Source: a virus
Lineage: Duplodnaviria > Heunggongvirae > Uroviricota > Caudoviricetes
Reading direction: 5' to 3' (one strand)
IMG/VR virus record: IMGVR_UViG_2541047966_000011
Span: 1-29,766 of that record
DNA: 29,766 bases
Both the position numbers and the translations under genes were made by a program. The notes beneath the pieces were generated by a model, which did no database searches, was not told the DNA's origin, and worked only from the letters and a program-made list of their open reading frames with translations. Positions 1-15,789 of the stretch are shown here, piece by piece. How positions within the stretch are numbered: position 1 is the first letter of the stretch; the number at the start of each line of letters is the position of its first letter.

Positions 1-534
1 ATGCTTACCCTGGACGAGATAGGTCAATCAGTACGTAACAATATCCAGTTGATTATTGATCATGTCGGCTTACCTCTTGCTGTTGGTCCGCTCAGTGATG
101 ATGATTACAAGATTCTGTGTGGTGGCTATGGTGAGCTTGAATGGGACTATGCGTTAAGTACCTATGGCAACTCCAGAGAAAAGTATGAGTTCTGCATAAA
201 ACTTGTTCAGCAAGGTCGGGTTCAGGGAATACCATCAGGAGCAGCAATTTGTGTTTATGGGGTTGAAGAAAACATCTTTCGTATCCATATGATCGAAAGG
301 TTTTCTAGAGAAGATGAATCTCACCCATTGAAAGGGCGCATGGTTTTACTCACTCTTATGAGTGCTTTTATATTTTGTAAAGCTGTTGAATGTAAAGTTG
401 TCCACATTGTAGAGCCAGTACCAGAACTGGTGCAGTATTACGAGTCTTTTGGTTTCCGCATGGAACAGTGCGGTTATGTGATGTCGGCAGTCATTGATGA
501 GCTGCAGGATATCTTTCTTAAATTTGCTCAGTAG
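1..534 (+). CDS. hypothetical protein in AT-rich cargo; C-terminus faintly resembles a GNAT-type acyltransferase motif (uncertain)
   Basis: ATG at position 1, so the ORF may extend upstream of the window. 177 codons, visibly AT-richer than the phage backbone. C-terminal LVQYYESFGF resembles GNAT motif B, but no clear motif A (Q/R-x-x-G-x-G/A) is visible. Confidence 0.45.
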   Translation: MLTLDEIGQSVRNNIQLIIDHVGLPLAVGPLSDDDYKILCGGYGELEWDYALSTYGNSREKYEFCIKLVQQGRVQGIPSGAAICVYGVEENIFRIHMIERFSREDESHPLKGRMVLLTLMSAFIFCKAVECKVVHIVEPVPELVQYYESFGFRMEQCGYVMSAVIDELQDIFLKFAQ

Positions 535-730: not shown

Positions 731-904
731 ATGAAAGATCAAAAAGCAACCAAGCCACAGGTTAAGTTCGACACAATGAAAGCATTCGCAGGTATGGGTG
801 CTGCTGTTGAAGTTCTGATGAAGGCTGCTCCTAATGCGTTCACTCACGCTACTGTCTCTGGTAAAGAGCAGCAGGGTAAGCTTCGTCGTCGCAAAGCAGC
901 ATGA
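731..904 (+). CDS. small lysine-rich hypothetical protein (57 aa)
   Basis: Not in the ORF track (<60 aa). ATG at 731 preceded by GGGAG at 719-723; translation MKDQKATKPQVKFDTMKAFAGMGAAVEVLMKAAPNAFTHATVSGKEQQGKLRRRKAA; stop TGA 902-904, followed 20 nt later by a terminator hairpin. Confidence 0.4.
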   Translation: MKDQKATKPQVKFDTMKAFAGMGAAVEVLMKAAPNAFTHATVSGKEQQGKLRRRKAA

Positions 905-923
905 TCATAGCTGGTGCTTTTTG

Positions 924-949
924 AAAACCCGCCTTTAGGCGGGTTTTTT
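924..949. terminator. bidirectional rho-independent terminator between convergent genes
   Basis: AAAACCCGCC-TTTA-GGCGGGTTTT: 6-bp GC stem flanked by an A-run and a T-run, so it reads as an intrinsic terminator on both strands. It lies between the plus-strand small ORF and the minus-strand PrtN-like gene. Confidence 0.6.
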
Positions 950-951
950 CT

Positions 952-1233
952 TTAGTGATGTTCTTTGCCCTTCTGTTTGCTTGTTCTGACCTGTTCCCAC
1001 TCGATACGTCCTTCTTCTCGTCTTTTGTCTATGTATTCCGCAAGATCCTGAATATTGATGCAACGTTTTGCTTTTTGTGATGTGCCGATGCGATATGTTG
1101 GAACGGGCAACTTACAAGCGTTTGCTTTTGCTTCTGCCGTGGCTGGACTCATGCCAAAGTACTTTTGGCTAACTGCTGAGAGTTCAATGTTAGGGGTATT
1201 GAATTCAGCCATCAGTAAAAACAAGGTGTTCAT
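952..1233 (-). CDS. PrtN-like (pyocin activator family) DNA-binding protein, possible excisionase-like regulator
   Basis: ORF-track frame 952..1260 opens with GTG. The internal ATG at 1233 (MNTLFLLMAEF...) has GGAG 6 nt upstream and matches the usual PrtN-family N-terminus as I recall it. Family assignment from memory. Confidence 0.55.
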   Translation of the reverse strand: MNTLFLLMAEFNTPNIELSAVSQKYFGMSPATAEAKANACKLPVPTYRIGTSQKAKRCINIQDLAEYIDKRREEGRIEWEQVRTSKQKGKEHH

Positions 1234-1269
1234 AATTTTCTCCATCAAAACCGGCTGCACCCGGGAAAA

Positions 1270-1842
1270 TCATAATTCTGTGCTGGTGGCAGGAATTAAT
1301 TTCTGCCAGATAGCGGAAACATATTTTGCCTGATGACGGGCATCAGCCAGGGCGTTGTGCCGTTCGCCATCGAAAGGCATGTCCATTTTGGGGTCGAATC
1401 CGATGGAACGCCCAAGCGTAACGATCGTGCGTACATCGTGGTCATTCCAGTATGCCCACGGGCAGATTTGTCCTGCTCGCTCATAAGCTCCACGTAAAAT
1501 TACGTTGTCGAAGGTGGCTCCGTTACCCCAGACTTTTAAATATTTCGTATTGTCTGCGTGCCGGTTAATGAAATGATTTAGTTCTGAGAGAGCATCGCTG
1601 ATCGACAAAGTATCATCAATACAGATTGCAGCTCGTGCTTCAGGGCTTTGTTTCAACCACCACAGGATGGTATCGCCGTCAGGTGTAGCTCCTTGCCCCA
1701 TAGCACTTTCCAGGCTAACAACCGTATAGAATTCTTGTCCGATGTCTCCGGTTTCTGGAGTGAAGAACACCGCGCCAATGGAAACGATCGGTGCATCCTT
1801 ATTTTTCCCCATCGTCTCAAGGTCGATCATTAAGTTGTTCAT
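1270..1842 (-). CDS. DEDD-type (DnaQ-like) 3'-5' exonuclease
   Basis: N-terminal MIDLETMG carries the Exo I D-x-E motif. ATG at 1842 sits after AGGAGG (spacing 6) and overlaps the upstream gene stop as TGATG. The ORF-track start at 1845 is GTG. Confidence 0.7.
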   Translation of the reverse strand: MNNLMIDLETMGKNKDAPIVSIGAVFFTPETGDIGQEFYTVVSLESAMGQGATPDGDTILWWLKQSPEARAAICIDDTLSISDALSELNHFINRHADNTKYLKVWGNGATFDNVILRGAYERAGQICPWAYWNDHDVRTIVTLGRSIGFDPKMDMPFDGERHNALADARHQAKYVSAIWQKLIPATSTEL

Positions 1843-2633
1843 CACTTCACCTCCTGCGGCGGTTCCGGTAGCGGCATCCAGTGAGTTGCTTGCTCAATAC
1901 CATTACCCGGCTTAATCGTTGCATCTCCGCGCCGAAAGGTGCTTCCGGTATAGCGTGCGGAGCATATTAGCGGTTCAACCAGAGAGCTATCGAAATTCAC
2001 CGAAATAAGCACGTTCTGATTCTTTTCCGGCATTCGATCACTACAGCTTATCCAACTATCCGGAGTTCCCGGAGAGTTGCCATTTACATCGAAGTTTGGC
2101 TCTGCGTCCTGAACCAGGAGGATGTAACCATTCTTGGCAGTATCAAGTTCTAACGCCTCGGTGACGGTGCCGAAATAGCGATTACCTAAATCAGCATCAC
2201 AAGTGCTTACATCAATGGAAACTTCCATGCCCTCGATTAATTCTGGCAAGTTGTAAGTTTGGCTTACGGGTTCGGCTTCCAGTTCTGCTATGCGCTTTTT
2301 TGCTGCTTCCAGCTCAACACGCAGCTTCCCTACCGTTAGCGCAATTTCCTCGTTCTCCTGGTCGCGTGATTTGATGTATTGCTGGTTTCTTTCCCGTTCA
2401 TCCAGCAGCGCCTGCACTACTTCAGGGTTGAAAGCTGCGATATAACGAGCGTTGTTCTCTGCGTTTTTCTGTTCGTCGAATCCTGGCCAGTCGACAATAT
2501 CTCCGTGATGATTATCACCTGGTGTGTGTACGGCGTACGTGCCGTATTTGCCCGGCGAAATAAATGCGACCCATTCACCCTGTGTTGCCTTTTCTGCCGC
2601 ATCACGTAGCGCCTGATAATTAATTTTTCTCAC
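1842..2633 (-). CDS. Ead/Ea22-like protein with DUF551-like C-terminus
   Basis: 263 aa with a coiled-coil segment (ELEAAKKRIAELEAE) and a C-terminal W-x-PLPEPP-type region typical of DUF551 as recalled. GTG start preceded by GGAGG within the repeat CTCACTGGTTGCCTCCTTTGCGAA. Confidence 0.6.
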   Translation of the reverse strand: MRKINYQALRDAAEKATQGEWVAFISPGKYGTYAVHTPGDNHHGDIVDWPGFDEQKNAENNARYIAAFNPEVVQALLDERERNQQYIKSRDQENEEIALTVGKLRVELEAAKKRIAELEAEPVSQTYNLPELIEGMEVSIDVSTCDADLGNRYFGTVTEALELDTAKNGYILLVQDAEPNFDVNGNSPGTPDSWISCSDRMPEKNQNVLISVNFDSSLVEPLICSARYTGSTFRRGDATIKPGNGIEQATHWMPLPEPPQEVK

Positions 2634-3226
2634 TGGTTGCCTCCTTTGCGAAGCTCTGCAGCGAAATATACAGCTGCGGAAACAATAGCTGCATGTCGGT
2701 ATTCACCATCAGAAAATAAAGAATCTCCCTTAAGTGCATTGACGATACTCTGATGATTTTTTGCCAGCATCTCCACGCCCTGCGCCCGTACTTCAGCCAG
2801 AAAAGCATCGGTGGCTGGCATATTTCCTGTTGCCTTCATGTCCTCCAAAATAACCAGAACGCTATCTCGCCCAACCACCTCAGCGATAACCTCGGTGTTG
2901 TCGCCAACAACATCGCAGAATGCCTGAACTGCCTTACGAGCCAGCTCATTCTCCGCCGCAAGCGCCGAAAACTTCTCGTGTGCCAACTTAACAGCTTCAT
3001 CAGCCTGCTTAATTGACTCAATCGATTTCTGTTGGTCTTCGGCCAGCCCTGCTAAATCAGCCTCCAGTTCGGCCAGGCGTTCATTTAATGCATCTCGTTC
3101 ATCCAGTAGAGCCAGCACAACCTGAGGTGTGACTTTCATACGAAATGCCAGCAATTTTTGTGGTGTGGCTGCTATTTTTATTGCTTCTGCCGCCCCACGC
3201 AGTGCCTGATAGTCAATCTTGCTCAC
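2630..3226 (-). CDS. Ead/Ea22-like protein (paralog B)
   Basis: Shares N-terminal xxKIxYQALRxAAE with paralog A, and an internal ESIKQADxAVKLAHEKFSALAAEN block and C-terminal RKGGNQ with paralog C. Start set to the GTG at 3226 (VSKIDYQ), which sits in the same repeated RBS context as paralog A; the ORF-track frame extends to 3259. Confidence 0.55.
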   Translation of the reverse strand: MSKIDYQALRGAAEAIKIAATPQKLLAFRMKVTPQVVLALLDERDALNERLAELEADLAGLAEDQQKSIESIKQADEAVKLAHEKFSALAAENELARKAVQAFCDVVGDNTEVIAEVVGRDSVLVILEDMKATGNMPATDAFLAEVRAQGVEMLAKNHQSIVNALKGDSLFSDGEYRHAAIVSAAVYFAAELRKGGNQ

Positions 3227-3852
3227 TGGTTGCCTCCTTTGCGAATCTGTTCCGCCCATTCTTCAAGGGATTTCTCCGCATATTCACCGGACAGGCCATC
3301 AATCGGGTGCGGCTCATTAGCCAACTCTTCTTTCGCTGACAGAATCATGCGCGTAACGTCGAAAACTTCACGCAAAGACTTATTGATAAATCCGTGATTG
3401 AACGCAGCAGCAAGACGGCTGGCGGCATAATTAATCCCCTCGTTGCGTGCTTCCGCACGTACTTCAGCAAGGAAAGCGTCGGTGGCTGGGGTATTTTCCA
3501 TTAGTTTTTTTGACGTTGACCAAAGCGCGGAAAGCCACTCTTTATCAAACCATTTATCCTTATGGTGAAACATTTCATCAACTGTCTGGTGGCAGCGGGA
3601 TACCTCAAAAAGGCACCGCGCATTCTCCGCCGCCAGCGCTGAAAACTTCTCGTGTGCCAACTTAACAGCCGCATCAGCCTGCTTAATTGACTCAATCGCT
3701 TTCTGGTGGTCTTCGGACAGAGCCGAAATCTTGGCCTCCGCTTCAGCAAATTTACGCACCAGATATTCAGCATTTGTTTCATTCACTTTCAGATCTCGTG
3801 GTACACATTTCCCGCGAAGAAACCCTTCCATTTCGAAAACATTCATGCGCAT
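3223..3852 (-). CDS. Ead/Ea22-like protein (paralog C)
   Basis: 209 aa sharing internal and C-terminal blocks with paralog B. ATG at 3852 has GGAG about 8 nt upstream; stop overlaps the paralog B start (GTGA). Confidence 0.55.
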   Translation of the reverse strand: MRMNVFEMEGFLRGKCVPRDLKVNETNAEYLVRKFAEAEAKISALSEDHQKAIESIKQADAAVKLAHEKFSALAAENARCLFEVSRCHQTVDEMFHHKDKWFDKEWLSALWSTSKKLMENTPATDAFLAEVRAEARNEGINYAASRLAAAFNHGFINKSLREVFDVTRMILSAKEELANEPHPIDGLSGEYAEKSLEEWAEQIRKGGNQ

Positions 3853-4379
3853 TTGCGTAACTCCGATAACTCGTTAAAACGTTCCATAAACATCCCGTAG
3901 GCATGGCCTGGCGACAGTGGAATCACTTTGAACATCTCTGTTGCCGGGATACCTTCCAGTACAGGCCAGAAAGAGCCATCATCAAGCCCGAGATCGCGGC
4001 GTTCGGTTGCCAGCATGATGAGATCGGCATATTTCACGGGCGTGCTCATAACCGGGGGTAACCCGTATTTCTCACGGATTACGGCGTCTATTTTTTCTTC
4101 CATCCGTTTATAGTCAGGAAGAAGGCGTTTCAGTGGCGCGGGGATGTCCTGACAATACGCTTCTGTTGCATCATGCATTAACGCTTCGAAAGCAAACTCC
4201 TGCGGTACCAGTTGGCTGCAAAGCACCGCATGTTGGGCGACGCTGTAGAAGTGTGAAAGATGTCCTGCAAAGCGACAGATATTTGAAAGGGAAACCGCGA
4301 TATCGTTAATCACGATGTCGTCTTTATTTATCCTGTCATAATAAAAATGCTTCCCGGAAAAAGTTTTAATAAATGACAT
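3843..4379 (-). CDS. HD-domain phosphohydrolase (YfdR-like 5'-deoxynucleotidase family)
   Basis: H...HD...D signature in GHLSHFYSVAQHAVLCSQ...ALMHDATEAY. Start placed at the ATG at 4379 (MSFIKTF...) with GGAG 6 nt upstream; the ORF-track frame extends to 4406. Confidence 0.7.
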   Translation of the reverse strand: MSFIKTFSGKHFYYDRINKDDIVINDIAVSLSNICRFAGHLSHFYSVAQHAVLCSQLVPQEFAFEALMHDATEAYCQDIPAPLKRLLPDYKRMEEKIDAVIREKYGLPPVMSTPVKYADLIMLATERRDLGLDDGSFWPVLEGIPATEMFKVIPLSPGHAYGMFMERFNELSELRKCA

Positions 4380-4472
4380 TTTGTTCTCCACGTATATGCG
4401 CTGCACCGCGCTGAATTCTGGTAAAAGGAAGCCCTCACCATCCGGTGATTATTGAGTTAATTACGTTTCCAT

Positions 4473-4494
4473 AAATGCCCCCGCAGGGGCATTT
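4473..4494 (-). terminator. stem-loop AAATGCCCC-cgca-GGGGCATTT, possible attenuator or terminator
   Basis: 9-bp perfect stem with a 4-nt loop in the intergenic gap between the YfdQ-like and HD genes. No strong U-tract follows on the transcribed strand, so termination efficiency is uncertain. Confidence 0.35.
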
Positions 4495-4506
4495 GCAGTA
4501 ATGAAA

Positions 4507-5331
4507 TCAGGCGGTGAAAGTACCAATAAAGGTTTCTACTTTGCTGTCTTTGAATTTCTCAACAAGCAGATCACGAAATTCGTTAGCCATTTCTTCCTGC
4601 ACCGCTTCCAGCTGAATAATGCGCAGAACCAGTACAGGACGATCGCCAGTGATAATGCTGAGGCGTAATTTAAATGGACGTTCTTTCAGACCTTCAAACG
4701 GAACGCATTTAAATTCAAATGCCACTGGCATAATATCTTTGGTCTTCGCTTCGACAGACTCCATCAGGGAGCGTTTGCCGCTGAAGTCATTATCTTCAAA
4801 ATCAGCGGTCTGGTTCGCTTCAATTGTGATTTTACGGATAGCCGCCGCCGCTTTGGTTGCCTGAATGGCGTCACCATTAGCATCAAAGCCCACAAGGTAG
4901 TCGGCCCAGTCTTCAATCCATTCTGCCAGTGATTTCTGGGAGTTACGCTCGCCATTAATAGACAACAGAGCAGAGAACGGTGCTGTCTTTTTCAGTTTGA
5001 GAGTGGCGGTGTTATCTGCGTGACCTGGTTCATCAATAGTACCCAGGTTAAGCACACTGACGGCACGCATATTATCAGCATCGATAAAGCAGCGGGTGCC
5101 TTCATCTGCAAGCTCTTTAGAATAACGGGTAAAGTCATCGATGCTGGCAGTGGAAAGCGCACCACGGAAACGGAAGCGATTTAAATTAAATTTTTCCAGA
5201 TCATGAATGCGGAAATTCTCAGGCAATGCCACAGCATCGGCACCAATCTTACTGATAATTTCATTAACACCCTGAGAAGAAATAAGGGCATGGATTTGAT
5301 TAATTGCGGTTGCGTCTAAGTTCTGAGACAT
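4507..5331 (-). CDS. YfdQ-like protein (DUF2303-type) of unknown function
   Basis: 274 aa; N-terminus [17 protein letters not shown]... matches what I recall of E. coli CPS-53 YfdQ. GAGGA lies 6 nt upstream of the ATG. Confidence 0.6.
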
Positions 5332-5396
5332 AATAAGTCCTCACTATATAAAGATATTCAGTGATGAGATAAATAATCAGTTAATTAATAACGATA

Positions 5397-5759
5397 TTAA
5401 TGACCTGCTGCGCGGAGTTTTCCGTCAGGTTCACCGGCAAGAGTCAGTAATTGTCCCTGGTCTTCCTGCAGAATAGTCAGGCGACCACCGCGATTGACAT
5501 ACATCGGCGTTTCGGTGGTGTCTTCTTCGGAAATTTTCCCGCGGTTAGTCGGGCGAACATATGAGAGTTTGTGTTTGATTTTCACACGGTTCTCATCAAA
5601 CGGTTCGATTTCCAGATTGAGTGAGACCTTCCCTTTGGTTTTCGTGTTCATCACACCGGAAGCGACTTCACTGAGAACTGCGCCGATTTTGGTTTCAAAT
5701 ACGCCGCCGTCCAGCTCCCCGATAAATGCCTGCACATCAGTACTGCGTTCGCTAGCCAT
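5397..5759 (-). CDS. hypothetical early-left protein (YfdP-like, ~120 aa)
   Basis: Start placed at the ATG at 5759 (MASERSTD...) with GAGGAG 7 nt upstream; the ORF-track frame extends to 5777. It is the first gene downstream of the long leftward leader. Confidence 0.5.
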   Translation of the reverse strand: MASERSTDVQAFIGELDGGVFETKIGAVLSEVASGVMNTKTKGKVSLNLEIEPFDENRVKIKHKLSYVRPTNRGKISEEDTTETPMYVNRGGRLTILQEDQGQLLTLAGEPDGKLRAAGH

Positions 5760-5807
5760 TTTGCTGCTCCTCATCATATCGACCCTGCAAGGTCGGTTGG
5801 TTTATCC

Positions 5808-5896
5808 ACAAAACAGAGAAGAACACCTGCGGTGGCAGCCGCCCGGATGGATTGGGTTATGAGCCCGTCGTCCGGTGATGTTCTTCTCTGTTTTGT
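5808..5896 (-). promoter_or_regulatory. 18-bp perfect inverted repeat forming a long stem-loop in the early-left leader
   Basis: ACAAAACAGAGAAGAACA at 5808-5825 is the exact reverse complement of 5879-5896, with a 53-nt loop. It sits 36 nt upstream of the RBS of the first early-left gene and is not followed by a U-tract. Confidence 0.45.
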
Positions 5897-6371
5897 AAAA
5901 AGAGCGGTACCAGCCGGAAGCAAGTGTACAAACTGGTACCGCCAAAGCAGTGGCTGTTGTGGTGACCGGTGCTGATCTCCGGCTTGCGGTTATTTCAGAC
6001 TCTCACGGGCGTTTAATTGCCCCGCCGAACAGCTCTTTTCCGCAATAGCTGCAATGTCTTTCGCGCATCAGCCTGCGCATTCACCACAACGCTGAGAGCA
6101 CTTAGCCAGTTACGGCACCACACTTTGTCGCGGTTCCATAAATGCCCTCATCGTTGCACCCTGGTCTCTTCCCAGGTGTCAAACCGAACCGCCACGCTGG
6201 TTAGGCGTCTTATCAGCATCATCATTGACTTGCACATTCCGGCTACCTGGTTTGTTTGCCCGAGCAAGGAGGGGATTGTCCCCTTTAACGTCCCCAGACC
6301 GCTAACGACGCATGTGCCATACGCCGTGTTACAACCAAATTTTGTTTAATCTTGCCTGTGACATGTTTCTT

Positions 6372-6407
6372 TTGGATACATTATGTATCTCATGGGTACA
6401 TTGCCAA
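6372..6407 (-). promoter_or_regulatory. candidate leftward early promoter (PL-like) overlapped by a palindromic operator
   Basis: On the minus strand: TTGGCA (plus 6402-6407), 16-nt spacer, CATAAT (plus 6380-6385). The perfect palindrome GATACATtATGTATC (6375-6389) overlaps the -10. Confidence 0.4.
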
Positions 6408-6410
6408 GTA

Positions 6411-6432
6411 TAAAAAAACCTGCCGAAGCAGG
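6411..6432 (-). terminator. intrinsic terminator downstream of the repressor gene
   Basis: Minus-strand transcript reads CCTGC-ttcg-GCAGG followed by TTTTTTTA, 14 nt past the repressor stop. Confidence 0.5.
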
Positions 6433-6445
6433 TTATAAATATTGA

Positions 6446-7120
6446 TTAGGCCTTTATTTTGTATCTTCTTGGTTTTCCTGAGAAAATTACTGTACCAATT
6501 ATAGAGCAATTACCGTTGATCTTAATGTAAGGTTCAGGCCAGTTTGGGTTTAATGCTTTGAGGTAACGCTGTGTTCCATCTTCTATCAACCGCTTAAAGG
6601 TGGTTTCGCCTGTATCGTGCATCAATGCAATAACGTCGTCACCGTGGCAGGCAGGGACTTCAGGATCTACAAAAATCATGTCTCCCGGGCGGTACTCATC
6701 AATCATTGAATCACCAATCACCCGCAAGATATAAGTCATTTCGCCACAGGGTACAGGGCAGGGATAAGTTTCTGCTGTGCTCAAATCAACCTCAGAATAG
6801 CCAACTTCTTTCCATGCTCCGGCCTGTACCCATGATATGACAGGGACTAACGTTATTTGTTTGTTAGTAATTGAAACATCAGGTTTTTTTGTGATGTTTG
6901 TTGTCTGGTGTTCTTGATCAAGCCATCCGACAGGCAGGTCGAAACATTTTTCGATGTGCCGTGCCATGCTGTCACCGATATTTTTAGTAGCACCATCTCC
7001 CATAAACCTGCTGGTCTGGGTTGGCTCGCGATCAATCATGGTGGCAAAGGAAGAATTCCCGCCAACACCATCTCTCAGTTTTCTGGCGTTAGACCGCCGG
7101 ATGTCATGGACTGTTTTCAT
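6446..7120 (-). CDS. CI-like prophage repressor with N-terminal HTH and C-terminal S24 (LexA-like) peptidase domain
   Basis: 224 aa. The C-terminal half contains GDSM (catalytic Ser context) and a downstream Lys, typical of S24 autocleaving repressors. Divergent from the Cro-like gene. No SD upstream of the ATG, so the mRNA may be leaderless. Confidence 0.85.
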   Translation of the reverse strand: MKTVHDIRRSNARKLRDGVGGNSSFATMIDREPTQTSRFMGDGATKNIGDSMARHIEKCFDLPVGWLDQEHQTTNITKKPDVSITNKQITLVPVISWVQAGAWKEVGYSEVDLSTAETYPCPVPCGEMTYILRVIGDSMIDEYRPGDMIFVDPEVPACHGDDVIALMHDTGETTFKRLIEDGTQRYLKALNPNWPEPYIKINGNCSIIGTVIFSGKPRRYKIKA

Positions 7121-7210
7121 AACGAAATTAAAACCTTTGTACCGATAGGGTACAAGTATCTTGAAGGTTCATCTCAATCATGTAATATGTATATCGGAGG
7201 TACATATTGT
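7121..7210. promoter_or_regulatory. divergent promoter and operator region between repressor and Cro-like gene
   Basis: 90-bp AT-rich gap containing the palindrome TTGTACC-gatag-GGTACAA (7137-7155), ATATGTATAT/TACATATTGTA-type motifs, and a candidate rightward promoter TTGAAG (7161-7166)-N16-TAATAT (7183-7188). Confidence 0.5.
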
Positions 7211-7411
7211 ATGAAAGCGTATTGGGACTCTTTAACCAAAGAACAGCAGGGCGAGTTGGCCGGAAAAGTTGGCTCAACACCAGGCTACTTACGGCTGGTT
7301 TTCAATGGTTATAAAAAAGCCAGTTTTGTGCTGGCTAAAAAACTTGAGCAATGCACGTCAGGTGCAATTACGAAATCTGACTTAAGACCGGATATCTATC
7401 CGAAAGATTAA
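7211..7411 (+). CDS. Cro-like HTH regulator (YdaS family-like)
   Basis: 66 aa, GGAGG 10 nt upstream of the ATG. C-terminal ...ITKSDLRPDIY matches the conserved YdaS-type tail as recalled. Divergent from the repressor. Confidence 0.7.
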   Translation: MKAYWDSLTKEQQGELAGKVGSTPGYLRLVFNGYKKASFVLAKKLEQCTSGAITKSDLRPDIYPKD

Positions 7412-7442
7412 CAGAACACCTTCAATTTTTAACCACAGAACG

Positions 7443-8006
7443 ATGAGGCTAACCGTGGGTAAGCATCACTGGAAAGTAGAAAAACAGCCTGAGTGGTACG
7501 TGAAAGCTGTCAGAAAAACTATCGCGGCGTTGCCGGGGGGTTACGCTGAAGCTGCTGAGTGGCTGGATGTAACAGAGAACGCTTTATTCAACCGCCTTCG
7601 TGCAGATGGCGATCAGATTTTCCCGCTGGGATGGGCAATGATTTTACAGCGCGCGGCTGGCACTCACTACATTGCGGATGCTGTCGCACAGTCTGCTGGT
7701 GGGGTGTTTGTATCGCTTCCTGAAATTGAGGAAGTAGAGAACGCCGATATAAACCAGCGCCTGCTGGAAGTCATCGAACAGATCGGGAGTTACTCAAAGC
7801 AGATTCGTTCGGCAATCGAAGATGGGGTAGTGGAGCCACACGAGCAGACAGCAATTAATGATGAGTTGTATCTGTCAATTTCGAAGCTCCAGGAACATGC
7901 AGCACTGGTCTACAAAATCTTTTGCGCTCCAGAAAAGAGTGACGCCCGCGAGTGTGCAGCTCCGGGCGTCGTGGCGTTTTGTGTCTGTGGAGAAACTAAC
8001 GCATGA
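7443..8006 (+). CDS. CII-like regulator (YdaT-family-like)
   Basis: 187 aa immediately after the Cro-like gene, the position CII occupies in lambdoid phages. Family assignment from memory, not a visible motif. Confidence 0.5.
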   Translation: MRLTVGKHHWKVEKQPEWYVKAVRKTIAALPGGYAEAAEWLDVTENALFNRLRADGDQIFPLGWAMILQRAAGTHYIADAVAQSAGGVFVSLPEIEEVENADINQRLLEVIEQIGSYSKQIRSAIEDGVVEPHEQTAINDELYLSISKLQEHAALVYKIFCAPEKSDARECAAPGVVAFCVCGETNA

Positions 8007-8151
8007 ACAGTTTAACGGCAAATAACCGTTTGTCGCAACAGCTGGTGGTCAGTGTCGCTGCACACCTGTTGTTACGGCATGAATGCAGATTACCAAATCA
8101 CCTGGCTGTAAGTAACCACAGAGAACTTTACCTGACTGTGGGGGGCGAGTT

Positions 8152-8331
8152 GTGCAGGAACTTAACCGCTGGTTTCGTGACGGAAGAGGACTTTATGTTC
8201 ATGTTATTCGTTGGGAGCCAGAAACACAGCGCGTTATCTATCTTCGCAAAGACTACCCGCATGAGTGCTTTAGTCCTTTGTGGAAATTCAGGCGTGATTT
8301 TGTTGAGTGTGAAGGACCACCAGCACATTGA
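8152..8331 (+). CDS. small hypothetical protein (59 aa), uncertain
   Basis: Not in the ORF track. GTG start after a G-rich stretch (GGGGGGCGAG); translation VQELNRWFRDGRGLYVHVIRWEPETQRVIYLRKDYPHECFSPLWKFRRDFVECEGPPAH. Protein-like composition but no recognised family. Confidence 0.3.
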   Translation: MQELNRWFRDGRGLYVHVIRWEPETQRVIYLRKDYPHECFSPLWKFRRDFVECEGPPAH

Positions 8332-8608
8332 TTCTGCCATTCCGGGACGTTACACTGTTCAGGCACCTTATAAAACGGGTGCCGGGATTGGCGTCCTGAA
8401 ATTGATTACTGAGCATAACCGCGCTCATGCGGTTTTTTCGTGTCATGAGCATTGCTACGCCCAAATTATGGTGGGGCGTACAGGGCCGACTTCGGTCGGG
8501 CCGGGTTCGGTAGTCTCCGGTAACGCCAACCCTGTACGTCTCACCACCTCTGTGATTGGCGTCCCATGTGGTGAGTTTTCTAAAAAACTGACTACCGGGG
8601 CTGTCACC

Positions 8609-9166
8609 ATGACTACTCTCCCAACCCTCTCTCAACCTGAAATTGCCATCGTTGATGGTCAGGCTGTTACATCTTCTTTGGCTGTTGCTGACTTCTTCTC
8701 TAAACGTCATGACGATGTTCTGAAAAAGATCCGCATTTTGGATTGTTCTCCAGAGTTTTGTGCCCGCAATTTTGCGGAGACATCAATTTTGGTACGCCAG
8801 CCCAACGGCGGTACTCGCAAACTTCCTTGCTATCAAATAACCCGCGACGGCTTTGCGTTTCTTGCTATGGGTTTCACGGGGAAACGTGCTGCCCAGTTCA
8901 AAGAGGCATACATCAATGCCTTTAACCAGATGGAGAAACAGCTTTCAAAGCCCTCTGTACCGAGCGACGTTGCACATAACGCCAGCGTTCTCTGTTCCTA
9001 CATTTCATCAATTCATCAGGTCTGGTTGCAGCAGCTTTATCCCATGCTGGAAAAAGCTGAATCACCGCTGGCTGTAAGTCTGTATGACCGAATTAACGAT
9101 GCGGCATTTCTTGCCCGTCTTATTCATTCGTCGCTGAACTCTTCAGAGGTAAGGGGGCGCAAATGA
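8609..9166 (+). CDS. rha: phage regulatory protein Rha
   Basis: From ATG 8609: MTTLPTLSQPEIAIVDGQAVTSSLAVADFFSKRHDDVLKKI...PCYQITRDGFAFLAMGFTGKRAAQFKEAYINAF, a typical Rha N-terminal pattern. The ORF-track frame runs from 8003, but the upstream 200 codons look non-genic. Confidence 0.7.
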   Translation: MTTLPTLSQPEIAIVDGQAVTSSLAVADFFSKRHDDVLKKIRILDCSPEFCARNFAETSILVRQPNGGTRKLPCYQITRDGFAFLAMGFTGKRAAQFKEAYINAFNQMEKQLSKPSVPSDVAHNASVLCSYISSIHQVWLQQLYPMLEKAESPLAVSLYDRINDAAFLARLIHSSLNSSEVRGRK

Positions 9167-9387
9167 TCCGGAATATTTTCAAACGATTTACCAATCAGAC
9201 TTTCCGTTGTCCTCGCCCCGGTCAGTGGTACACCACGCCTGCAGGGCATGTTCTACGTGTTAGCCTGGTTGACCGTGAATGTCAGAAGGTGGTTTGTGAA
9301 CCGCTGGGCCGTAATTACCGCGTCAGTATGCCGCTTATAGCCTTTTGCTCCGGAAAAAACATGAAGCATCTCGGAGGTGCAGCATGA
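9163..9387 (+). CDS. hypothetical protein (74 aa)
   Basis: Start overlaps the rha stop (ATGA) and stop overlaps the next gene start (ATGA), consistent with translational coupling. No recognised domain. Confidence 0.45.
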   Translation: MIRNIFKRFTNQTFRCPRPGQWYTTPAGHVLRVSLVDRECQKVVCEPLGRNYRVSMPLIAFCSGKNMKHLGGAA

Positions 9388-10202
9388 GTATGGAGCTGAT
9401 GGTTAAAGCGATGAAAATTCGAGTGGGTAATCCATTGCGAAAACTGGTTCTGATCAAGCTGGCTGATAATGCCAGCGATCAGGGTGAGTGCTGGCCCAGC
9501 TATCAGCATATTGCTGACCAGTGCGAGATTAGCAAACGTTCTGTGATGAATCATATTGCGGCCCTTTGTGAGTCCGGGCTGGTAAAAAAAGTCACCCGGA
9601 AAGGTGAAAAAGGTAACTCAAGTAATATCTATCTCCTTCATCTGGATGGTGCAGGAGATTCACTAGGGGGTAGTGCAAATAATTCACTATCTGGTGCAGC
9701 AAATTCACCAGGTAGTGCAGGAGTTGCACCAGGGGGTAGTGCAGGAGATTCACCCAGAACCAGTCACTCTTTTGAACCAGTCAAAGAACCAGTCAATGAA
9801 CCAATAGCTGTTGGTGCATCAGTTGATGAGTCCGTGCGAGTTCGTTCAAACCGACCGGAATACTCTCCGGAGTTTGAGCAGGCATGGCTGGTATATCCCA
9901 AACGTGCTGGTGGCAATTCAAAATCTGCAGCCTTCAAAGCCTGGAAAGCCCGTTTGAATGAGGGAGTAAACCCCGAAACCATGCTGGAAGGTGTGAAACG
10001 CTACGCGGGATGGGTATCTGCGATGGGTAACAGCGGCACACAATTTGTGAAACAGGCTGTCACGTTCTTTGGTCCGGATCGTCATTTCGAAGAATTCTGG
10101 GAAGTTCCTGCGGTATCTGCAGCCAGACGCGAGGACCCGTACTTCAAAGCCAGTTACGACAACGTGGACTACAGCCAGATCCCGGCAGGATTCAGGGGGT
10201 GA
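9384..10202 (+). CDS. replication initiator (O-like) with N-terminal HTH and a DnaT-like C-terminal region
   Basis: N-terminal LVLIKLADNASDQGECWPSYQHIADQCEISKRSVMNHIAALCESGLVK looks like the HTH of phage replication initiators; C-terminal EQAWLVYPKRAGGNSKSAAFKAWKARL is DnaT-like as recalled. GGAGGTG upstream; the start could be ATG 9384 or 9390, and the ORF-track start at 9345 is TTG. Confidence 0.7.
   Translation: MSMELMVKAMKIRVGNPLRKLVLIKLADNASDQGECWPSYQHIADQCEISKRSVMNHIAALCESGLVKKVTRKGEKGNSSNIYLLHLDGAGDSLGGSANNSLSGAANSPGSAGVAPGGSAGDSPRTSHSFEPVKEPVNEPIAVGASVDESVRVRSNRPEYSPEFEQAWLVYPKRAGGNSKSAAFKAWKARLNEGVNPETMLEGVKRYAGWVSAMGNSGTQFVKQAVTFFGPDRHFEEFWEVPAVSAARREDPYFKASYDNVDYSQIPAGFRG
9648..9755. 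repeat. iteron-like direct repeats inside the initiator gene (candidate replication origin)
   Basis: About five imperfect copies of a GGTGCAGGAGATTCAC-like unit at roughly 22-bp spacing (starts near 9648, 9671, 9693, 9714, 9738). They encode a Gly/Ser/Ala-rich linker and are followed by GAACCAGTCAA-type repeats at 9771-9800. Confidence 0.5.
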
Positions 10203-10204
10203 TC

Positions 10205-10693
10205 ATGAGTCTTTTGAATGAAGTTCAGAAATTCATTGAAGCCCATCCGGGGTGTACTTCCGGAGACATTGCGGATGCTTTTGCAGGTTACTCACGGCAG
10301 CGCGTTCTGCAGTCAGCAAGCAAGTTACGTCAGAGTGGGCGTGTGGCTCACCGTTGTGAAGGAGATACACGCAGACATTTCCCACGCCTGACTGAGAGAG
10401 CGCAGGAGCCGGAACCACAACCAGTTCGTGAAACCAGACCTGTGCGCAATTTCTATGTCGGCACTAACGATCCCCGGGTGATTTTGTGCCTGACCCGCCA
10501 GGCGGAAGAACTGGAGTCCAGGGGCTTATACCGTCGTGCTGCAACGGTGTGGATGGCGGCATTCCGTGAAAGCCACTCCCAGCCAGAACGAAACAATTTT
10601 CTGGCGCGTCGTGAGCGGTGCTTACGGAAAAGCAGCAAGCGCGCTGTATCGGGTGAAGAGTGGTATCTGTCAGGGAATTACGTGGGGGCTTAA
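10205..10693 (+). CDS. putative transcriptional regulator; winged-HTH-like N-terminus, C-terminus reminiscent of PerC/ANR-type small regulators (uncertain)
   Basis: ATG at 10205 lies 5 nt after GGGGG; the ORF-track start at 10199 is GTG. Arg-rich C-terminal half. Stop overlaps the methyltransferase start (TAATG). Confidence 0.45.
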   Translation: MSLLNEVQKFIEAHPGCTSGDIADAFAGYSRQRVLQSASKLRQSGRVAHRCEGDTRRHFPRLTERAQEPEPQPVRETRPVRNFYVGTNDPRVILCLTRQAEELESRGLYRRAATVWMAAFRESHSQPERNNFLARRERCLRKSSKRAVSGEEWYLSGNYVGA

Positions 10694-11346
10694 TGAGTAA
10701 TAAATATTGCCAGGCGCTGGTGGAGCTGCGGAACAAACCAGCCCATGAACTGAAGGAAGTGGGCGATCAGTGGCGCACGCCGGATAACATTTTCTGGGGA
10801 ATTAACACCCTGTTTGGCCCGTTTGTTCTGGATCTGTTCACTGATGGTGATAACGCCAAATGTGCCGCTTATTACACTGCGGAAGACAACGCGCTGGCGC
10901 ATGACTGGTCTGAACGTCTTGCGGAGCTTAAAGGTGCTGCCTTTGGTAATCCCCCGTACAGCCGCGCCAGTCAGCATGAAGGGCAATACATCACCGGCAT
11001 GCGTTACATCATGAAGCATGCCAGTGCCATGCGTGATAAGGGCGGACGCTATGTTTTCCTGATCAAAGCTGCCACCAGCGAAGTGTGGTGGCCGGAAGAT
11101 GCAGATCATATTGCTTTTATTCGCGGGCGTATTGGTTTTGAACTGCCTGCCTGGTTTATCCCGAAGGACGAGAAGCAGGTGCCGACAGGCGCTTTCTTCG
11201 CTGGTGCTATTGCTGTTTTCGACAAGACCTGGAAGGGACCGGCAATCAGCTACATCGGGCGCGATGAACTTGAGGCATGTGGTGAGGCGTTTCTGGCGCA
11301 GGTTCGCCAGCAGGCAGAAAAACTGGTCAGGGAGATGGCGGCATGA
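10693..11346 (+). CDS. phage N6-adenine DNA methyltransferase (Dam-type, orphan)
   Basis: Contains the amino-methyltransferase catalytic motif within AAFGNPPYS (NPPY). ATG at 10693 (MSNKYCQ...). No adjacent restriction endonuclease gene. Confidence 0.8.
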   Translation: MSNKYCQALVELRNKPAHELKEVGDQWRTPDNIFWGINTLFGPFVLDLFTDGDNAKCAAYYTAEDNALAHDWSERLAELKGAAFGNPPYSRASQHEGQYITGMRYIMKHASAMRDKGGRYVFLIKAATSEVWWPEDADHIAFIRGRIGFELPAWFIPKDEKQVPTGAFFAGAIAVFDKTWKGPAISYIGRDELEACGEAFLAQVRQQAEKLVREMAA

Positions 11347-11669
11347 CGACGTTAACTCAATGCCAGCAGCAGGTGCTGGATATGCTGATTTCTTATCAGA
11401 AAGAACGTGGCTTCCCGCCAACCAATCAGGAGGTGGCAACCATGCTGGGATACCGTTCGGTGAATGCAGCGGTGGAGCATCTTCGCGCACTGGAGAAAAA
11501 AGGCGTCATCACGATAAAGCGTGGCGTGGCCCGGGGCATCACGCTTCATACCGCGGTGAAGGACGACGGCAGCGAGGCGGTCGGGATTATCCGCGCACTG
11601 CTTGCCGGTGAGGAAAACGCCAGGCTGCGTGCAGCCCACTGGTTACATGAGAGGGGGCTGAAAGTATGA
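11343..11669 (+). CDS. LexA N-terminal DNA-binding-domain-only protein (lacks the S24 autocleavage domain)
   Basis: Residues 4-67 align by eye to E. coli LexA residues 3-68 (LTxxQQxV...G-PPT-xE-A--LG-RS-NAA-EHL-AL--KGVI-I--G--RGI-L), with recognition-helix residues S, N, A, E conserved. The protein ends at 108 aa with no Ala-Gly cleavage site or Ser/Lys dyad. Confidence 0.75.
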   Translation: MTTLTQCQQQVLDMLISYQKERGFPPTNQEVATMLGYRSVNAAVEHLRALEKKGVITIKRGVARGITLHTAVKDDGSEAVGIIRALLAGEENARLRAAHWLHERGLKV

Positions 11670-12055
11670 AGCTAATACTGCCTTTCCCGCCCAGCGTGAA
11701 CACGTACTGGCGACACCCCAACAAAGGGGCGTTTGCTGGTAAGAGCCTGATAAGCGCGGCGGGGCGAAAATTCCAGAGCGCGGCGTGTGCAGCAATAGTT
11801 GAGCAGTTACGTCGTCTGCCAAAACCAACGTCGGCACCTGCTTCAGTGGAGATCGTGTTGTTTCCTCCGGATAACCGGATCCGCGATCTGGACAACTATA
11901 ACAAGGCGCTGTTTGACGCCCTGACCCACGCGGGGGTGTGGGAAGACGACAGACAGGTGAAAAGAATGCTGGTGGAGTGGGGACCGGTTATCCCGAAAGG
12001 GAAGGTCGAGATCACTATCAGTAAGTACAAGAAAACGGCGGGTGCAGCCGCCTGA
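11666..12055 (+). CDS. rusA: RusA-family Holliday junction resolvase
   Basis: 129 aa starting MKLILPFPPSVNTYW..., the characteristic RusA N-terminus. GAGGGGG upstream; start overlaps the previous stop. Confidence 0.85.
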   Translation: MKLILPFPPSVNTYWRHPNKGAFAGKSLISAAGRKFQSAACAAIVEQLRRLPKPTSAPASVEIVLFPPDNRIRDLDNYNKALFDALTHAGVWEDDRQVKRMLVEWGPVIPKGKVEITISKYKKTAGAAA

Positions 12056-12885: not shown

Positions 12886-13881
12886 GTGACCGTGAGAGCA
12901 TTACTGACCCCTGAAATTGCCCCGCGTATGGGGATCGTATTGTTCAGACCCGGTTCAGAGCTGATGCCCCTGTTTATGCAGGGGCGTGTCCTGCTGGAGC
13001 CTGAGCCAGAACGTTATTCATCTTTTGCCAGTGGTGCCGTTCCGGCGGCATCACAACCGCTGGCGGATGATCCTGCTGTTCGGGCCGTGTTCCGCAATGA
13101 GGCAGTGATCCGTCGTGCTGGTGGCGTGGAATGTCTTGAAAGCTGGTTACTTCGTGAAAAAGGCTGCCAGTGGCCTCATTCCGACTGGCACAGCGAGAAC
13201 ATGACAACAATGCGACACGCTCCGGGCGCAATCCGTCTGTGCTGGCACTGCGATAACCAGCTGCGCGATCAGTTCACGGAACGGCTGGAATCAATGGCAA
13301 CGGATAACTGTGCCCGCTGGGTGTTGTCTGTTGTGCGTCGGGATCTCGGTTTTGATGACAGTCACGTTGTGACAATGCCGGAACTGTGCTGGTGGCTGGT
13401 TCGTAATGATCTGGCGGATGCCTTACCGGAAAGCGCAGCCCGTAAGGCACTGAGATTACCGAATCCTGTTGTGCCGTCTGTCACCCGGGAAAGTGACCTT
13501 GTGCCTTCGGTTCCTGCCACCAGCATCATCCAGGATAAGGCGAAAAAGGTGCTGGCGCTGAAAGTGGATCCGGAGTCGCCGGAGTCTTTTATGTTACGCC
13601 CAAAACGTCGCCGCTGGGTTAATGAAAAGTACACGCGCTGGGTTAAGACACAGCCGTGCGCATGTTGTGGAAAGCCTGCTGATGATCCTCACCACCTGAT
13701 AGGCCACGGTCAGGGGGGAATGGGTACAAAAGCGCATGACCTCTTTGTGTTGCCTTTGTGCAGAAAGCATCACGACGAGCTGCATGCGGATACCGTGGCA
13801 TTTGAAGAGAAGTATGGCTCCCAGCTGGAGCTGATATTTCGTTTTATCGATCGTGCGCTGGCAATAGGCGTACTGGCGTAA
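12886..13881 (+). CDS. DUF968-like nin-region protein with C-terminal Cys/His-rich HNH-like motif
   Basis: 331 aa with GTG start. C-terminal CACCGKPADDPHHLIGHGQGGMGTKAHDLFVLPLCRKHHDELH resembles a zinc-binding HNH-like module. DUF968 name from memory. Confidence 0.55.
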   Translation: MTVRALLTPEIAPRMGIVLFRPGSELMPLFMQGRVLLEPEPERYSSFASGAVPAASQPLADDPAVRAVFRNEAVIRRAGGVECLESWLLREKGCQWPHSDWHSENMTTMRHAPGAIRLCWHCDNQLRDQFTERLESMATDNCARWVLSVVRRDLGFDDSHVVTMPELCWWLVRNDLADALPESAARKALRLPNPVVPSVTRESDLVPSVPATSIIQDKAKKVLALKVDPESPESFMLRPKRRRWVNEKYTRWVKTQPCACCGKPADDPHHLIGHGQGGMGTKAHDLFVLPLCRKHHDELHADTVAFEEKYGSQLELIFRFIDRALAIGVLA

Positions 13882-14797: not shown

Positions 14798-15055
14798 ATG
14801 CAGGGCGAAAAGCAGCAGCCATATTTTTTTAATCCTGGTATGACTGTTGAACAGCTTGAAGACTGGCTGGAGCAGCAAAAGCTTCATCTAAGCCGCTATA
14901 GCCGTCTGGTAAAAGAAAAAGCAGAGCTTGAAGAACGGCTCAGTGATATTTCTGTGGAAATTGAACGAATGTCTGCTGGTGGTTTTAACGGAAAGTTGAG
15001 TTTCCCTTGGGAGTCAAGTTCGCTTCTGAGAAATCATCAACAGGGTAGTATTTGA
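14798..15055 (+). CDS. hypothetical protein (85 aa), first late-operon ORF
   Basis: ATG at 14798 (MQGEKQQPYFF...) with GGAGG about 6 nt upstream. The longer ORF-track form (from 14729) would span the terminator hairpin. Predicted coiled-coil-like, no recognised family. Confidence 0.5.
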   Translation: MQGEKQQPYFFNPGMTVEQLEDWLEQQKLHLSRYSRLVKEKAELEERLSDISVEIERMSAGGFNGKLSFPWESSSLLRNHQQGSI

Positions 15056-15134
15056 CTGAAATAATAAACAGACTGTCATTAAGATCCCTTCCCCTCATAT
15101 CTGAGAGGACCAACAGCAATTAAGAGGGGGCTAA

Positions 15135-15521: not shown

Positions 15522-15789
15522 CCCGACAGCAACTATAAATGCGCTGTTATGTGCTTGTGTTGTTATTACTCTGATGTTTTATCGTCGTGGTGATTCGCGG
15601 CATCGTCCTTGGGTTTCACGTTTAGCCTGGCTGATTACTGTTACATACAGTGCTGTTCCGTTGGCCTATCTCTGTGGGATTTATCCTCATTCCTCATGGC
15701 CCATTATCGTGGCGAACACTATTTTTCTTTCCGTGCTGGTGGCCGTCAGAGGCAACGTTGCACGTCTGGTTGATCATCTGAGGCACTAA
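15508..15789 (+). CDS. second holin-like or antiholin-like membrane protein
   Basis: 93 aa with GTG start after GGGAGG and two or three hydrophobic helices. Overlaps the first holin end and abuts the endolysin start (TAATG). Confidence 0.5.
   Translation: MELNDPTATINALLCACVVITLMFYRRGDSRHRPWVSRLAWLITVTYSAVPLAYLCGIYPHSSWPIIVANTIFLSVLVAVRGNVARLVDHLRH

Follow-up and report, generated by a model that had tools for sequence, protein, structure and literature searches.

Gene content of the leftward early operon

We analyzed the leftward early region of a tailed phage (Caudoviricetes; IMG/VR record IMGVR_UViG_2541047966_000011, positions 1 to 29,766) that encodes homologues of the Escherichia coli K-12 proteins YfdP, YfdQ, and YfdR. 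The whole stretch of 29,766 nucleotides (nt) is called the window. Its sequences and open reading frames (ORFs) were compared with Pfam, PHROG, NCBIfam, PADLOC, and Rfam, and by BLASTP and phmmer. An unbroken run of minus-strand ORFs extends from a CI-like repressor gene to a bidirectional terminator-like hairpin. In the order of transcription, it encodes YfdP, YfdQ, an HD-domain protein (the YfdR homologue), three Ea22-family proteins, a DEDDh exonuclease, and a PrtN-type excisionase (Table 1). The only function of these genes that has been tested is the blocking of the host replication initiator, and the proteins used were those of K-12, which are about 98% identical to the ones encoded here.

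Table 1. Genes and transcription signals of the leftward operon and its borders, in window positions
Feature	Position	Strand	Evidence or remark
CI-like repressor gene	6446-7120		Peptidase_S24, E = 1.5e-26; phrog_4
Terminator-like hairpin with T-run, directly 3' of the CI-like repressor gene	6417-6434	-	Equivalent terminator annotated in phage Ayreon
Promoter-like site TTGGCA-16-CATAAT, candidate pL	6380-6407	-	10 of 12 consensus matches in a scan
Candidate tL-type terminator, hairpin GCGGUACCAG...CUGGUACCGC followed by UCUUUUU	5942-5904, U-run to 5895	-	In the leader upstream of yfdP
yfdP homologue	5397-5759	-	99.2% identical to K-12 YfdP; phrog_204, E = 1e-50
yfdQ homologue (DUF2303, PF10065)	4507-5331	-	98.5% identical to K-12 YfdQ; Pfam E = 1.8e-92
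GC-rich hairpin, possible internal terminator or attenuator	4474-4493	-	Between yfdQ and the HD gene, which are 100 nt apart; from the fold of 4400-4510
yfdR homologue, HD-domain protein	3843-4379	-	97.8% identical to K-12 YfdR over all 178 residues; phrog_318, E = 3e-111
209-residue protein, YfdS-like N terminus with Ea22-type coiled coil and C terminus	3223-3852	-	phrog_614, E = 5e-86; phrog_14548, E = 4e-88
Ead/Ea22-like protein	2630-3259	-	PF13935, E = 1.2e-9; phrog_368, E = 2.5e-47
Ead/Ea22 plus DUF551 protein	1842-2633	-	PF13935, E = 2.5e-33; PF04448, E = 1e-21
Rv2179c-like/T4 DexA-like DEDDh 3'-5' exonuclease	1270-1842	-	PF16473, E = 4e-75; phrog_255, E = 4e-94; ORF open to 1845
PrtN-type excisionase (xis), last gene of the unit	952-1260	-	PF11112, E = 4e-23; phrog_1300 "excisionase," E = 8e-40
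Bidirectional terminator-like hairpin closing the unit, 3' of xis	923-948	both	11-bp stem with 6 GC pairs, T-runs on either side

A first-pass annotation of this region had listed an exonuclease, an HD-domain phosphohydrolase, a YfdQ-like protein, and a YfdP-like protein. All four are encoded on the minus strand at the positions in Table 1, with Pfam and PHROG matches far beyond chance and with the K-12 identities given there. However, the list had left out the three Ea22-family ORFs (1842-3852). The statement that the genes themselves are not novel agrees with what we found. RefSeq already names them (YfdQ family protein, 5'-deoxynucleotidase YfdR, protein YfdP, 3'-5' exonuclease, ead/Ea22-like, and DUF551), the cassette is nearly identical to that of a K-12 prophage, and most E. 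coli genomes contain matching DNA: parts of the stretch were matched in 4160 of 5426 complete genomes. At the DNA level, mosaic segments of the stretch show 97 to 98% identity to phages mEp460, Lys8385Vzw, 1720a-02, cdtI, and many Stx2c phages. The genes are therefore already catalogued and form a very common early-left block of E. coli lambda-like prophages.

The yfdP-yfdQ-yfdR cassette and its relatives

The only relative with functional data (PMC4776307) is the yfdP-yfdQ-yfdR-yfdS-yfdT cluster of the K-12 cryptic prophage CPS-53 (KpLE1), which has the same gene order. The yfdP ORF of the window is open to 5777 and the HD ORF is open to 4406 from a GTG, and the K-12 starts correspond to positions 5759 and 4379, respectively. 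The two regions differ further downstream. In CPS-53, YfdS (an N-terminal region plus DUF551) and YfdT are followed by the TorI excisionase. In the window, the YfdS N terminus is fused to an Ea22-type C terminus, DUF551 is carried by a separate Ea22 protein (1842-2633), and the DEDDh exonuclease and PrtN-type excisionase follow. Comparison with the K-12 protein revealed no YfdT homologue in the stretch. CPS-53 is defective, whereas the window looks like an intact phage.

YfdP and YfdQ form an obligate pair. In a sample of 80 IMG/VR loci encoding a YfdQ about 99% identical to that of the window, yfdP was directly upstream of yfdQ in 79 of 79 cases. The same was true of all 13 distant loci, in which YfdQ is about 30 to 57% identical; these came from Escherichia phage ArgO145, two Vibrio phages, Thalassomonas, two Pseudomonas/Stutzerimonas phages, Xanthomonas, Psychrobacter, Acinetobacter, and four IMG/VR contigs. 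The pair is thus distributed over phages of Escherichia, Vibrio, Pseudomonas, Xanthomonas, Acinetobacter, and Psychrobacter. PF27127 was carried by all of the YfdP homologues among the matches listed, and the window YfdQ covered positions 2 to 269 of the 269 in PF10065 (309.9 bits; cutoff, 26.6).

The neighbors of the distant pairs are usually DNA replication or recombination genes. Gam, RecT, an exonuclease, and SSB are encoded just upstream of the pair in ArgO145. Vibrio phage 24E35.2 has an epsilon-like exonuclease upstream and SSB downstream, the Xanthomonas-type phages L085 and Bolivar have Erf, a RecE-like exonuclease, and SSB downstream, and in Acinetobacter phage 4316 the neighbors are DUF2800, DUF2815, PolA, a beta clamp, and VRR-NUC. 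At the ArgO145 locus (5590-7342), YfdP and YfdQ come directly after SSB, and the gene 3' of yfdQ encodes a different protein of 147 amino acids (aa). A YfdR-like HD homologue was not detected in this 12.8-kb locus (phmmer E below 0.01). In the literature, ArgO145 is cited for having both the yfbR/yfdQ/yfdP cluster and a full recombination (Rec) module (PMC12315714).

A YfdQ homologue has been solved. PDB entry 9o7m ("YfdQ Protein") contains 36 chains of one 274-residue sequence (profile E = 1e-58). Because all of these chains lie in a single entry, the protein is probably a very large homo-oligomer. Our literature search found no publication on 9o7m, and its sequence, as read off the alignment, had a single distant relative (33%) in the reference genomes. 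The AlphaFold2 model of YfdP (predicted local distance difference test score [pLDDT] of 81) has one long helix and a three-stranded meander. Neither this model nor that of YfdQ (pLDDT of 78) gave an informative fold match.

The HD protein shares its metal-site motifs (H59, H78-D79, and D128) with E. coli YfbR and with Atu1052 (PDB 2gz4), its nearest solved structure (E = 2e-13), with which these residues align. YfbR-like families were its best Pfam and NCBIfam matches. However, it reached 24.2 bits with PF12917 (YfbR-like), under the cutoff of 25.9, and 19.8 bits with the NCBIfam equivalog NF003009, for which the cutoff is 122. Because these scores are under the curated cutoffs, the HD protein is not a YfbR orthologue. 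No other HD-type Pfam family, HD-GYP included, was listed at an E value of 0.01 or better. The protein falls in the YfbR-like branch of deoxynucleoside monophosphate (dNMP) phosphatases, albeit with scores under the curated thresholds. Reported differences between K-12 YfdR and YfbR are the binding of DnaA by YfdR and its much lower affinity for nucleotides; the latter report is quoted second-hand from PMC4776307.

The HD gene follows yfdP-yfdQ in 76 of 77 close loci, but its family has a history of its own. YfdR-like HD proteins were matched in 330 phage records, among them those of many virulent and jumbo phages, and the six HD loci that we sampled from these had no YfdP or YfdQ nearby. Their HD genes were next to ligase and DNA polymerase genes, an overlapping dNMP-kinase gene, a NinI phosphatase gene, or an exonuclease gene plus xis (Yersinia phage YeP3). 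The overlap with a dNMP-kinase gene (PF21448) is in Alteromonas phage P24 (locus L100, 3998-5064), and it recalls the pairing of Dmp with dNMP kinase reported for anti-Kongming phages. One distant phage, Pseudomonas vB_PstS-pAN (locus L095, 5712-7024), has all four gene types together, in the order PrtN, YfdP, YfdQ, two ORFs, and then exonuclease and HD homologues whose genes overlap each other. Overall, the region can be divided into three units, which recur in early operons near DNA-metabolism genes: the YfdP-YfdQ pair, the gene for the HD protein, and the exonuclease together with xis.

A phage without a Rec module, with many Chi sites and an O-only replication module

The first-pass annotation had noted that the leftward genes stand in place of the lambda Red/Gam set, and our scans bear this out. 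No substantial ORF of the early-left (952-5777) or early-right operon had a PHROG match to an annealing protein, Gam, Abc2, or SSB, and the only recombination gene found in those scans was rusA (11666-12055). Chi (GCTGGTGG) occurs 19 times in the window, against 1.2 expected from shuffles (largest shuffle value, 4). This is about 1 per 1.6 kb, or roughly three times the E. coli density. Examples of the sites are at 7695, 8041, 9906, and 14975-16455. Sixteen of the 19 are on the plus strand, which is the late-gene strand and the one on which Chi acts on RecBCD that enters from the right.

The replication module (9345-10690, plus strand) has one O-like/DnaD-like gene (9345-10199), followed by a PerC-like gene. 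No match to P, DnaC, DnaB, or another helicase or helicase loader was found in it. The O alleles of 63 related loci differ, but all share the tail REDPYFK(A/S)SYDNVDYSQIPAGFRG, which might serve to dock a partner protein of the host or the phage. This O-only layout was present in 63 of the 80 close loci with YfdP, YfdQ, and YfdR, compared with 34 of 314 in a published panel. We do not count this excess in favor of a functional link, because our sample is nearly clonal.

These properties match a published class. Zheng et al. (2025) described lambdoid phages of the LLS type, which have no Rec module and many Chi sites and whose growth is enhanced by RecBCD (PMC12315714). LLS has 23 Chi sites, 20 of them on one strand, and the window falls in the same class. 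The same paper names the yfbR(yfdR)/yfdQ/yfdP trio in the early-left operon of LLS and argues that it is not a hidden Rec module. The early-left operons of mEp460, cdtI, Stx2c phages, SfV, ST64B, and LLS resemble that of the window in lacking a Rec module, in their one-strand Chi sites, in the O-only layout, and in having no N homologue. However, the genes between the HD gene and xis vary from phage to phage, and LLS YfdQ is only 56% identical to that of the window. We also rejected the trio as a hidden recombination module, because ArgO145 has YfdP-YfdQ after a complete Gam-RecT-exonuclease-SSB set and no detected HD homologue. The first-pass suggestion that these genes act outside recombination is supported insofar as they do not resemble a Rec module.

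A proposed block of host replication initiation

The functional data come from K-12. Noguchi and Katayama isolated yfdQRST as a multicopy suppressor of the over-initiation of an hda-185 mutant (PMC4776307). The minimal set was yfdQ with yfdR plus one of the two genes yfdS and yfdT, and yfdP was dispensable. Purified YfdR bound domain I of DnaA in a Phe46-dependent manner and competed with DiaA and DnaB. In multicopy, the set inhibited initiation in wild-type, hda, dnaAcos, seqA, and diaA backgrounds, and extracts oversupplied with YfdQRST inhibited oriC replication in vitro. The authors proposed that the ancestral phage shut down host initiation in the manner of lambda P (PMC4776307). This view has been taken up in the later DnaA literature, in which YfdR figures as a protein of prophage origin that competes with DnaB for domain I (PMC12122000).

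By analogy with these results, we suggest, with a probability of about 0.45, that the cassette of the window interferes with host replication initiation via the YfdR-DnaA interaction together with YfdQ. In this scenario, the stretch, which is a mosaic of separately inherited cassettes, would be the promoter-distal, delayed-early part of a pL-type operon in a prophage of the LLS/mEp460/SfV type that has no recombination module. Upon induction or infection, the yfdP-yfdQ-yfdR cassette would most likely hinder initiation at the host chromosome. YfdR would occupy Phe46 of DnaA, the residue at which DiaA and DnaB dock, and would act together with YfdQ and a YfdS/YfdT-type partner, so that DnaB would not be loaded at oriC. 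The product of ORF 3223-3852, whose residues 1 to 65 are 66% identical to K-12 YfdS, may supply this partner. Host replication resources would then be free for the phage, whose own contribution to replication is an O-type initiator alone. Because its HD site is intact, YfdR probably retains a weak dNMP-phosphatase activity. The three Ea22-family proteins would be the counterpart of the lambda exo-xis region, the DexA-like exonuclease travels with the PrtN-type excisionase, and recombination would be left to host RecBCD acting at the many Chi sites of the phage. We infer that blocking initiation is the natural role of the cassette in the phage cycle.

We hold this reading below even odds because its evidence comes from overexpression, and because the distribution of the HD family and the neighborhoods of YfdP-YfdQ also fit DNA or nucleotide metabolism. 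Several observations weigh against it. DnaA was affected only when the proteins were overproduced, no initiation phenotype resulted from deletion of yfdQRST, and the possibility of an artifact was conceded by the authors (PMC4776307). The tested gene set is not fully present in the window, because YfdT is missing and YfdS is represented by the 65-aa N-terminal match alone. In the many virulent and jumbo phages that have it, the HD family is found in the company of ligase, polymerase, and dNMP-kinase genes and apart from YfdP and YfdQ, a setting that suggests that its ancestral role was enzymatic, in nucleotide metabolism. The position of YfdP-YfdQ beside SSB, Erf/RecT, exonuclease, and polymerase genes fits a general role in DNA metabolism at least equally well. 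Finally, the O-only layout was associated with YfdPQR in a single clade of close relatives, where simple linkage may account for the association.

The exonuclease, the excisionase, and the Ea22-type proteins

The exonuclease matched PF16473 over the full profile (positions 1 to 177 of 177; 251.8 bits; cutoff, 27). Its catalytic residues are present as D8-L-E10, F-D113, and H163-NALA-D168 (H-x4-D), and the D/E motif aligns with the DFE motif of T4 DexA, a 3'-5' DNA exonuclease. DexA is also its nearest solved relative (PDB 8kel; phmmer E = 8e-11, residues 4 to 141). The window enzyme shares the DEDDh 3'-5' exonuclease fold and catalytic residues with DexA and with the E. coli homologue EcD (HREX). 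It differs from DexA in its length (191 aa versus 227 aa), in its Pfam family (Rv2179c-like), and in being encoded by a temperate phage, beside xis. It differs from EcD in that it keeps the DexA tetramer residues: S81 and D84 are the equivalents of DexA S87 and D90, where EcD has A78. The phmmer alignment ends at DexA residue 160, short of the region around D169, where a conserved Trp and an acidic residue recognize 5-hydroxymethylcytosine (5hmC). In PADLOC, the exonuclease alone had a match, to a weak generic DEDDh (Cas-associated) model (E = 2e-5), and no other protein of the stretch matched a defense system.

Among 48 close loci with enough downstream sequence, the exonuclease gene was present in 12, always beside a PrtN-type xis, and the equivalent of this xis gene is annotated as an excisionase in mEp460. 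We rejected the exonuclease and the HD protein as a fixed pair in the E. coli relatives, where they occur together in those 12 of 48 loci, although their genes are adjacent in pAN.

The three Ea22-family genes lie where lambda has its exo-xis region, between the recombination-gene slot and xis, and they share with it the Ead_Ea22 domain. In contrast to lambda, the window has three paralogous or mosaic copies. The combination of Ead_Ea22 with DUF551 is the "V2" architecture of Ea22 in Stx phages (PMC10834534), and lambda Ea22 has been described as favoring the lysogenic state. The product of ORF 3223-3852 had no Pfam match, and that of ORF 2630-3259 is its paralogue over the C-terminal two thirds. 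These adjacent 209-aa ORFs (2630-3852, minus strand) overlap by 37 nt, have long, nearly identical segments (for example, SIESIKQAD.AVKLAHEKFSALAAEN and PATDAFLAEVRA), and end in a common RKGGNQ. They are a tandem pair of mosaic Ea22-type paralogues.

Alternative explanations

The two enzymes could instead serve ordinary nucleotide turnover during lytic growth, without a specific host target. The exonuclease would degrade 3'-ended DNA to dNMPs, which the HD enzyme would dephosphorylate, so that pools are adjusted or fragments are cleared. The catalytic residues of both proteins are intact, and T4 DexA scavenges host DNA to mononucleotides. PHROG, RefSeq, and EcoCyc-style names call the HD family "dNMP phosphatase" or "5'-deoxynucleotidase," and the family is widespread in virulent phages beside DNA polymerase, ligase, and dNMP-kinase genes. 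However, we know of no lambdoid phage that degrades host DNA, and the conversion of dNMPs to nucleosides wastes precursors. Moreover, K-12 YfdR is a poor nucleotidase according to the second-hand report cited above, and turnover does not explain why the tested phenotype needs yfdQ jointly with yfdR. We therefore consider this explanation unlikely. We regard as still less probable the idea, close to that of the first-pass annotation, that nucleotides on which host immunity depends are removed by the HD enzyme, either by itself or jointly with the exonuclease. This could occur by depletion of deoxyadenosine monophosphate (dAMP) or other dNMPs, which would block the deoxyinosine triphosphate (dITP) signal of Kongming-type systems, or by degradation of linear nucleotide or DNA signals. 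There is a precedent in Dmp of phage T5, the only documented dNMP phosphatase that acts in counter-defense. This dNMP 5'-phosphatase blocks Kongming by removing dAMP, the dITP precursor, and its catalytic mutant is inactive (bioRxiv 10.1101/2024.12.20.629578). Dmp and the HD protein are alike in their nominal reaction, from dNMP to deoxynucleoside, and in being products of early genes of a phage. The genes of the window are early and lie in a mosaic region, the P24 overlap echoes the co-occurrence of Dmp with dNMP kinase, and the exonuclease and HD homologues overlap in pAN. However, Dmp is not homologous to the HD protein (BLASTP E = 3.8; Dmp has no Pfam match and thus none in common), and it works in a virulent phage, T5, which breaks down the DNA of its host and encodes a dNMP kinase; neither applies to the phage of the window. 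No dNMP kinase, the reported Kongming trigger, was found among the annotated ORFs of the window, the structural genes beyond 20.3 kb not being included in the scan. The HD protein belongs to the YfbR-like branch and not to the HD-GYP type, and the low nucleotide affinity reported for YfdR also argues against this role. A DEDDh exonuclease needs a free 3' end, and cyclic messengers are therefore not obvious substrates; on general enzymology, the enzyme would not open them. The known enzymes that act on immune signaling nucleotides (Acb1, Apyc1, and the AcrIII-1 ring nucleases) have 2H phosphodiesterase, metallo-beta-lactamase, and DUF1874 folds, whereas Pfam assigns the window enzymes to the HD (YfbR-like) and DEDDh folds. 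In addition, close relatives do not inherit the exonuclease together with the HD gene, our literature search found no HD or DEDD anti-defense protein, and the 97.8% identical K-12 orthologue has a different, tested activity, DnaA binding. The degradation of signaling nucleotides, which had been put forward for these genes, received no support from the Pfam, PADLOC, homology, or literature comparisons made here.

YfdP-YfdQ, possibly with the 3'-5' exonuclease, might also be an unrecognized DNA replication or recombination accessory and not a DnaA inhibitor. Examples would be an oligomer that binds single-stranded DNA or DNA ends, or a helper in helicase loading at O-only origins. The strict pairing of YfdP with YfdQ in all 13 distant phages would suit such a role, as would the recombination and replication genes next to the pair in ArgO145, 24E35.2, L085/Bolivar, and 4316 and the large homo-oligomer suggested by 9o7m. 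A yfdQ deletion is reported to be sensitive to methyl methanesulfonate and H2O2 (PMC4776307), and DnaQ-like nucleases are found in some lambdoid Rec modules. However, the gene neighborhood is circumstantial, and a hidden Rec function is disputed by Zheng et al. on the grounds that ArgO145 has the cluster plus a full Rec module (PMC12315714). We think an accessory of this kind improbable, to the same degree as the removal of immune nucleotides. It is very unlikely that the exonuclease is a prophage defense of the HREX type, which would protect the lysogen by destroying the 5hmC-modified DNA of T-even phages. EcD, an E. coli DexA homologue, cuts 5hmC DNA and, when carried on a plasmid, confers protection against T4 (PMC12153337), and the window enzyme is likewise a DexA homologue (E = 8e-11). 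But loss of the DexA D90 equivalent, which gives a dimer-only form, has been linked to 5hmC-only cleavage, and by this criterion the retained S81 and D84 make the window enzyme DexA type and not EcD type (PMC12153337). Furthermore, the leftward operon is repressed, and the exonuclease gene, which lies within it at 9 nt upstream of xis and without a promoter-like site of its own, should therefore be silent in a lysogen. Lastly, the genes could hold a new mechanism. YfdP-YfdQ, as a pair with a fold of its own, and the DnaA-binding YfdR might divert DnaB-DnaC from DnaA-oriC to the phage origin, replacing the missing helicase loader in a new form of host replication hijack, or the HD protein and exonuclease might be a new counter-defense against DNA- or dNMP-derived signals. 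We see this as a long shot. A positive answer on the activity of YfdP-YfdQ, on helicase loading in O-only phages, or on the HD phosphatase against nucleotide-based immunity would matter for phage replication or phage-host conflict, although the window is not set apart from hundreds of near-identical prophages for answering these questions. As it stands, the locus is a matter of routine annotation: its genes are named and common, one of them has a published biochemical partner (DnaA), and the absence of Red/Gam together with abundant Chi was already described in 2025.

Transcription signals of the leftward operon

Co-transcription of the leftward unit is plausible from the anatomy of its genes. 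From the HD gene to xis, neighboring genes overlap by 4 to 37 nt, with one gap of 9 nt. Phage Ayreon has an annotated promoter at the place equivalent to the candidate pL, which we identified here by its consensus match alone. Between this site and yfdP lies an ORF-poor leader of about 600 nt (5778-6380, minus strand), in which no minus-strand ORF exceeds 49 aa. The fold of 5885-5950, which contains the candidate tL-type hairpin, has a free energy of -22.4 kcal/mol (z = -2.9), and none of 200 shuffles was as stable. Ayreon also has a terminator annotated at the place matching the hairpin between yfdQ and the HD gene. Because these two hairpins (5942-5904 and 4493-4474) lie within the unit, read-through probably needs antitermination. 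No N homologue was evident, and antitermination in this phage may be RNA-based (put-like), a mechanism that has been suggested for LLS. Downstream of the candidate promoter, the first 146 nt had no significant fold (z = -0.6 versus shuffles), which speaks neither for nor against a put-like RNA. Rfam gave only weak, partial terminator-type matches, at 884-956, in the region 800-7500.

Other features of the window

Beyond xis, on the opposite strand, an ORF (1-534, plus strand) matched phrog_4350 (E = 2e-103) and may be a moron. On the other side of the operon, Rfam gave strong matches to isrK (60 bits; 8363-8439) and to the C4 antisense RNA (82 bits; 8464-8551) on the plus strand. Both are inside the long ORF 8003-9166, upstream of its Rha/antirepressor-like part. 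This arrangement suggests control of the antirepressor by a c4 RNA of the P1/P7 type, and it suggests that the 387-aa ORF has been called too long on its 5' side.

The nin-like region has a gene (11343-11669, plus strand), adjoining rusA, for a 108-aa protein with the LexA DNA-binding domain only (PF01726, E = 3e-19) and without the cleavage domain. Its product could be a non-cleavable LexA-like repressor. Farther along, just 5' of the gene for the Q antiterminator, a gene at 12886-13881 (plus strand) encodes a DUF968/HNH-like protein of 331 aa.

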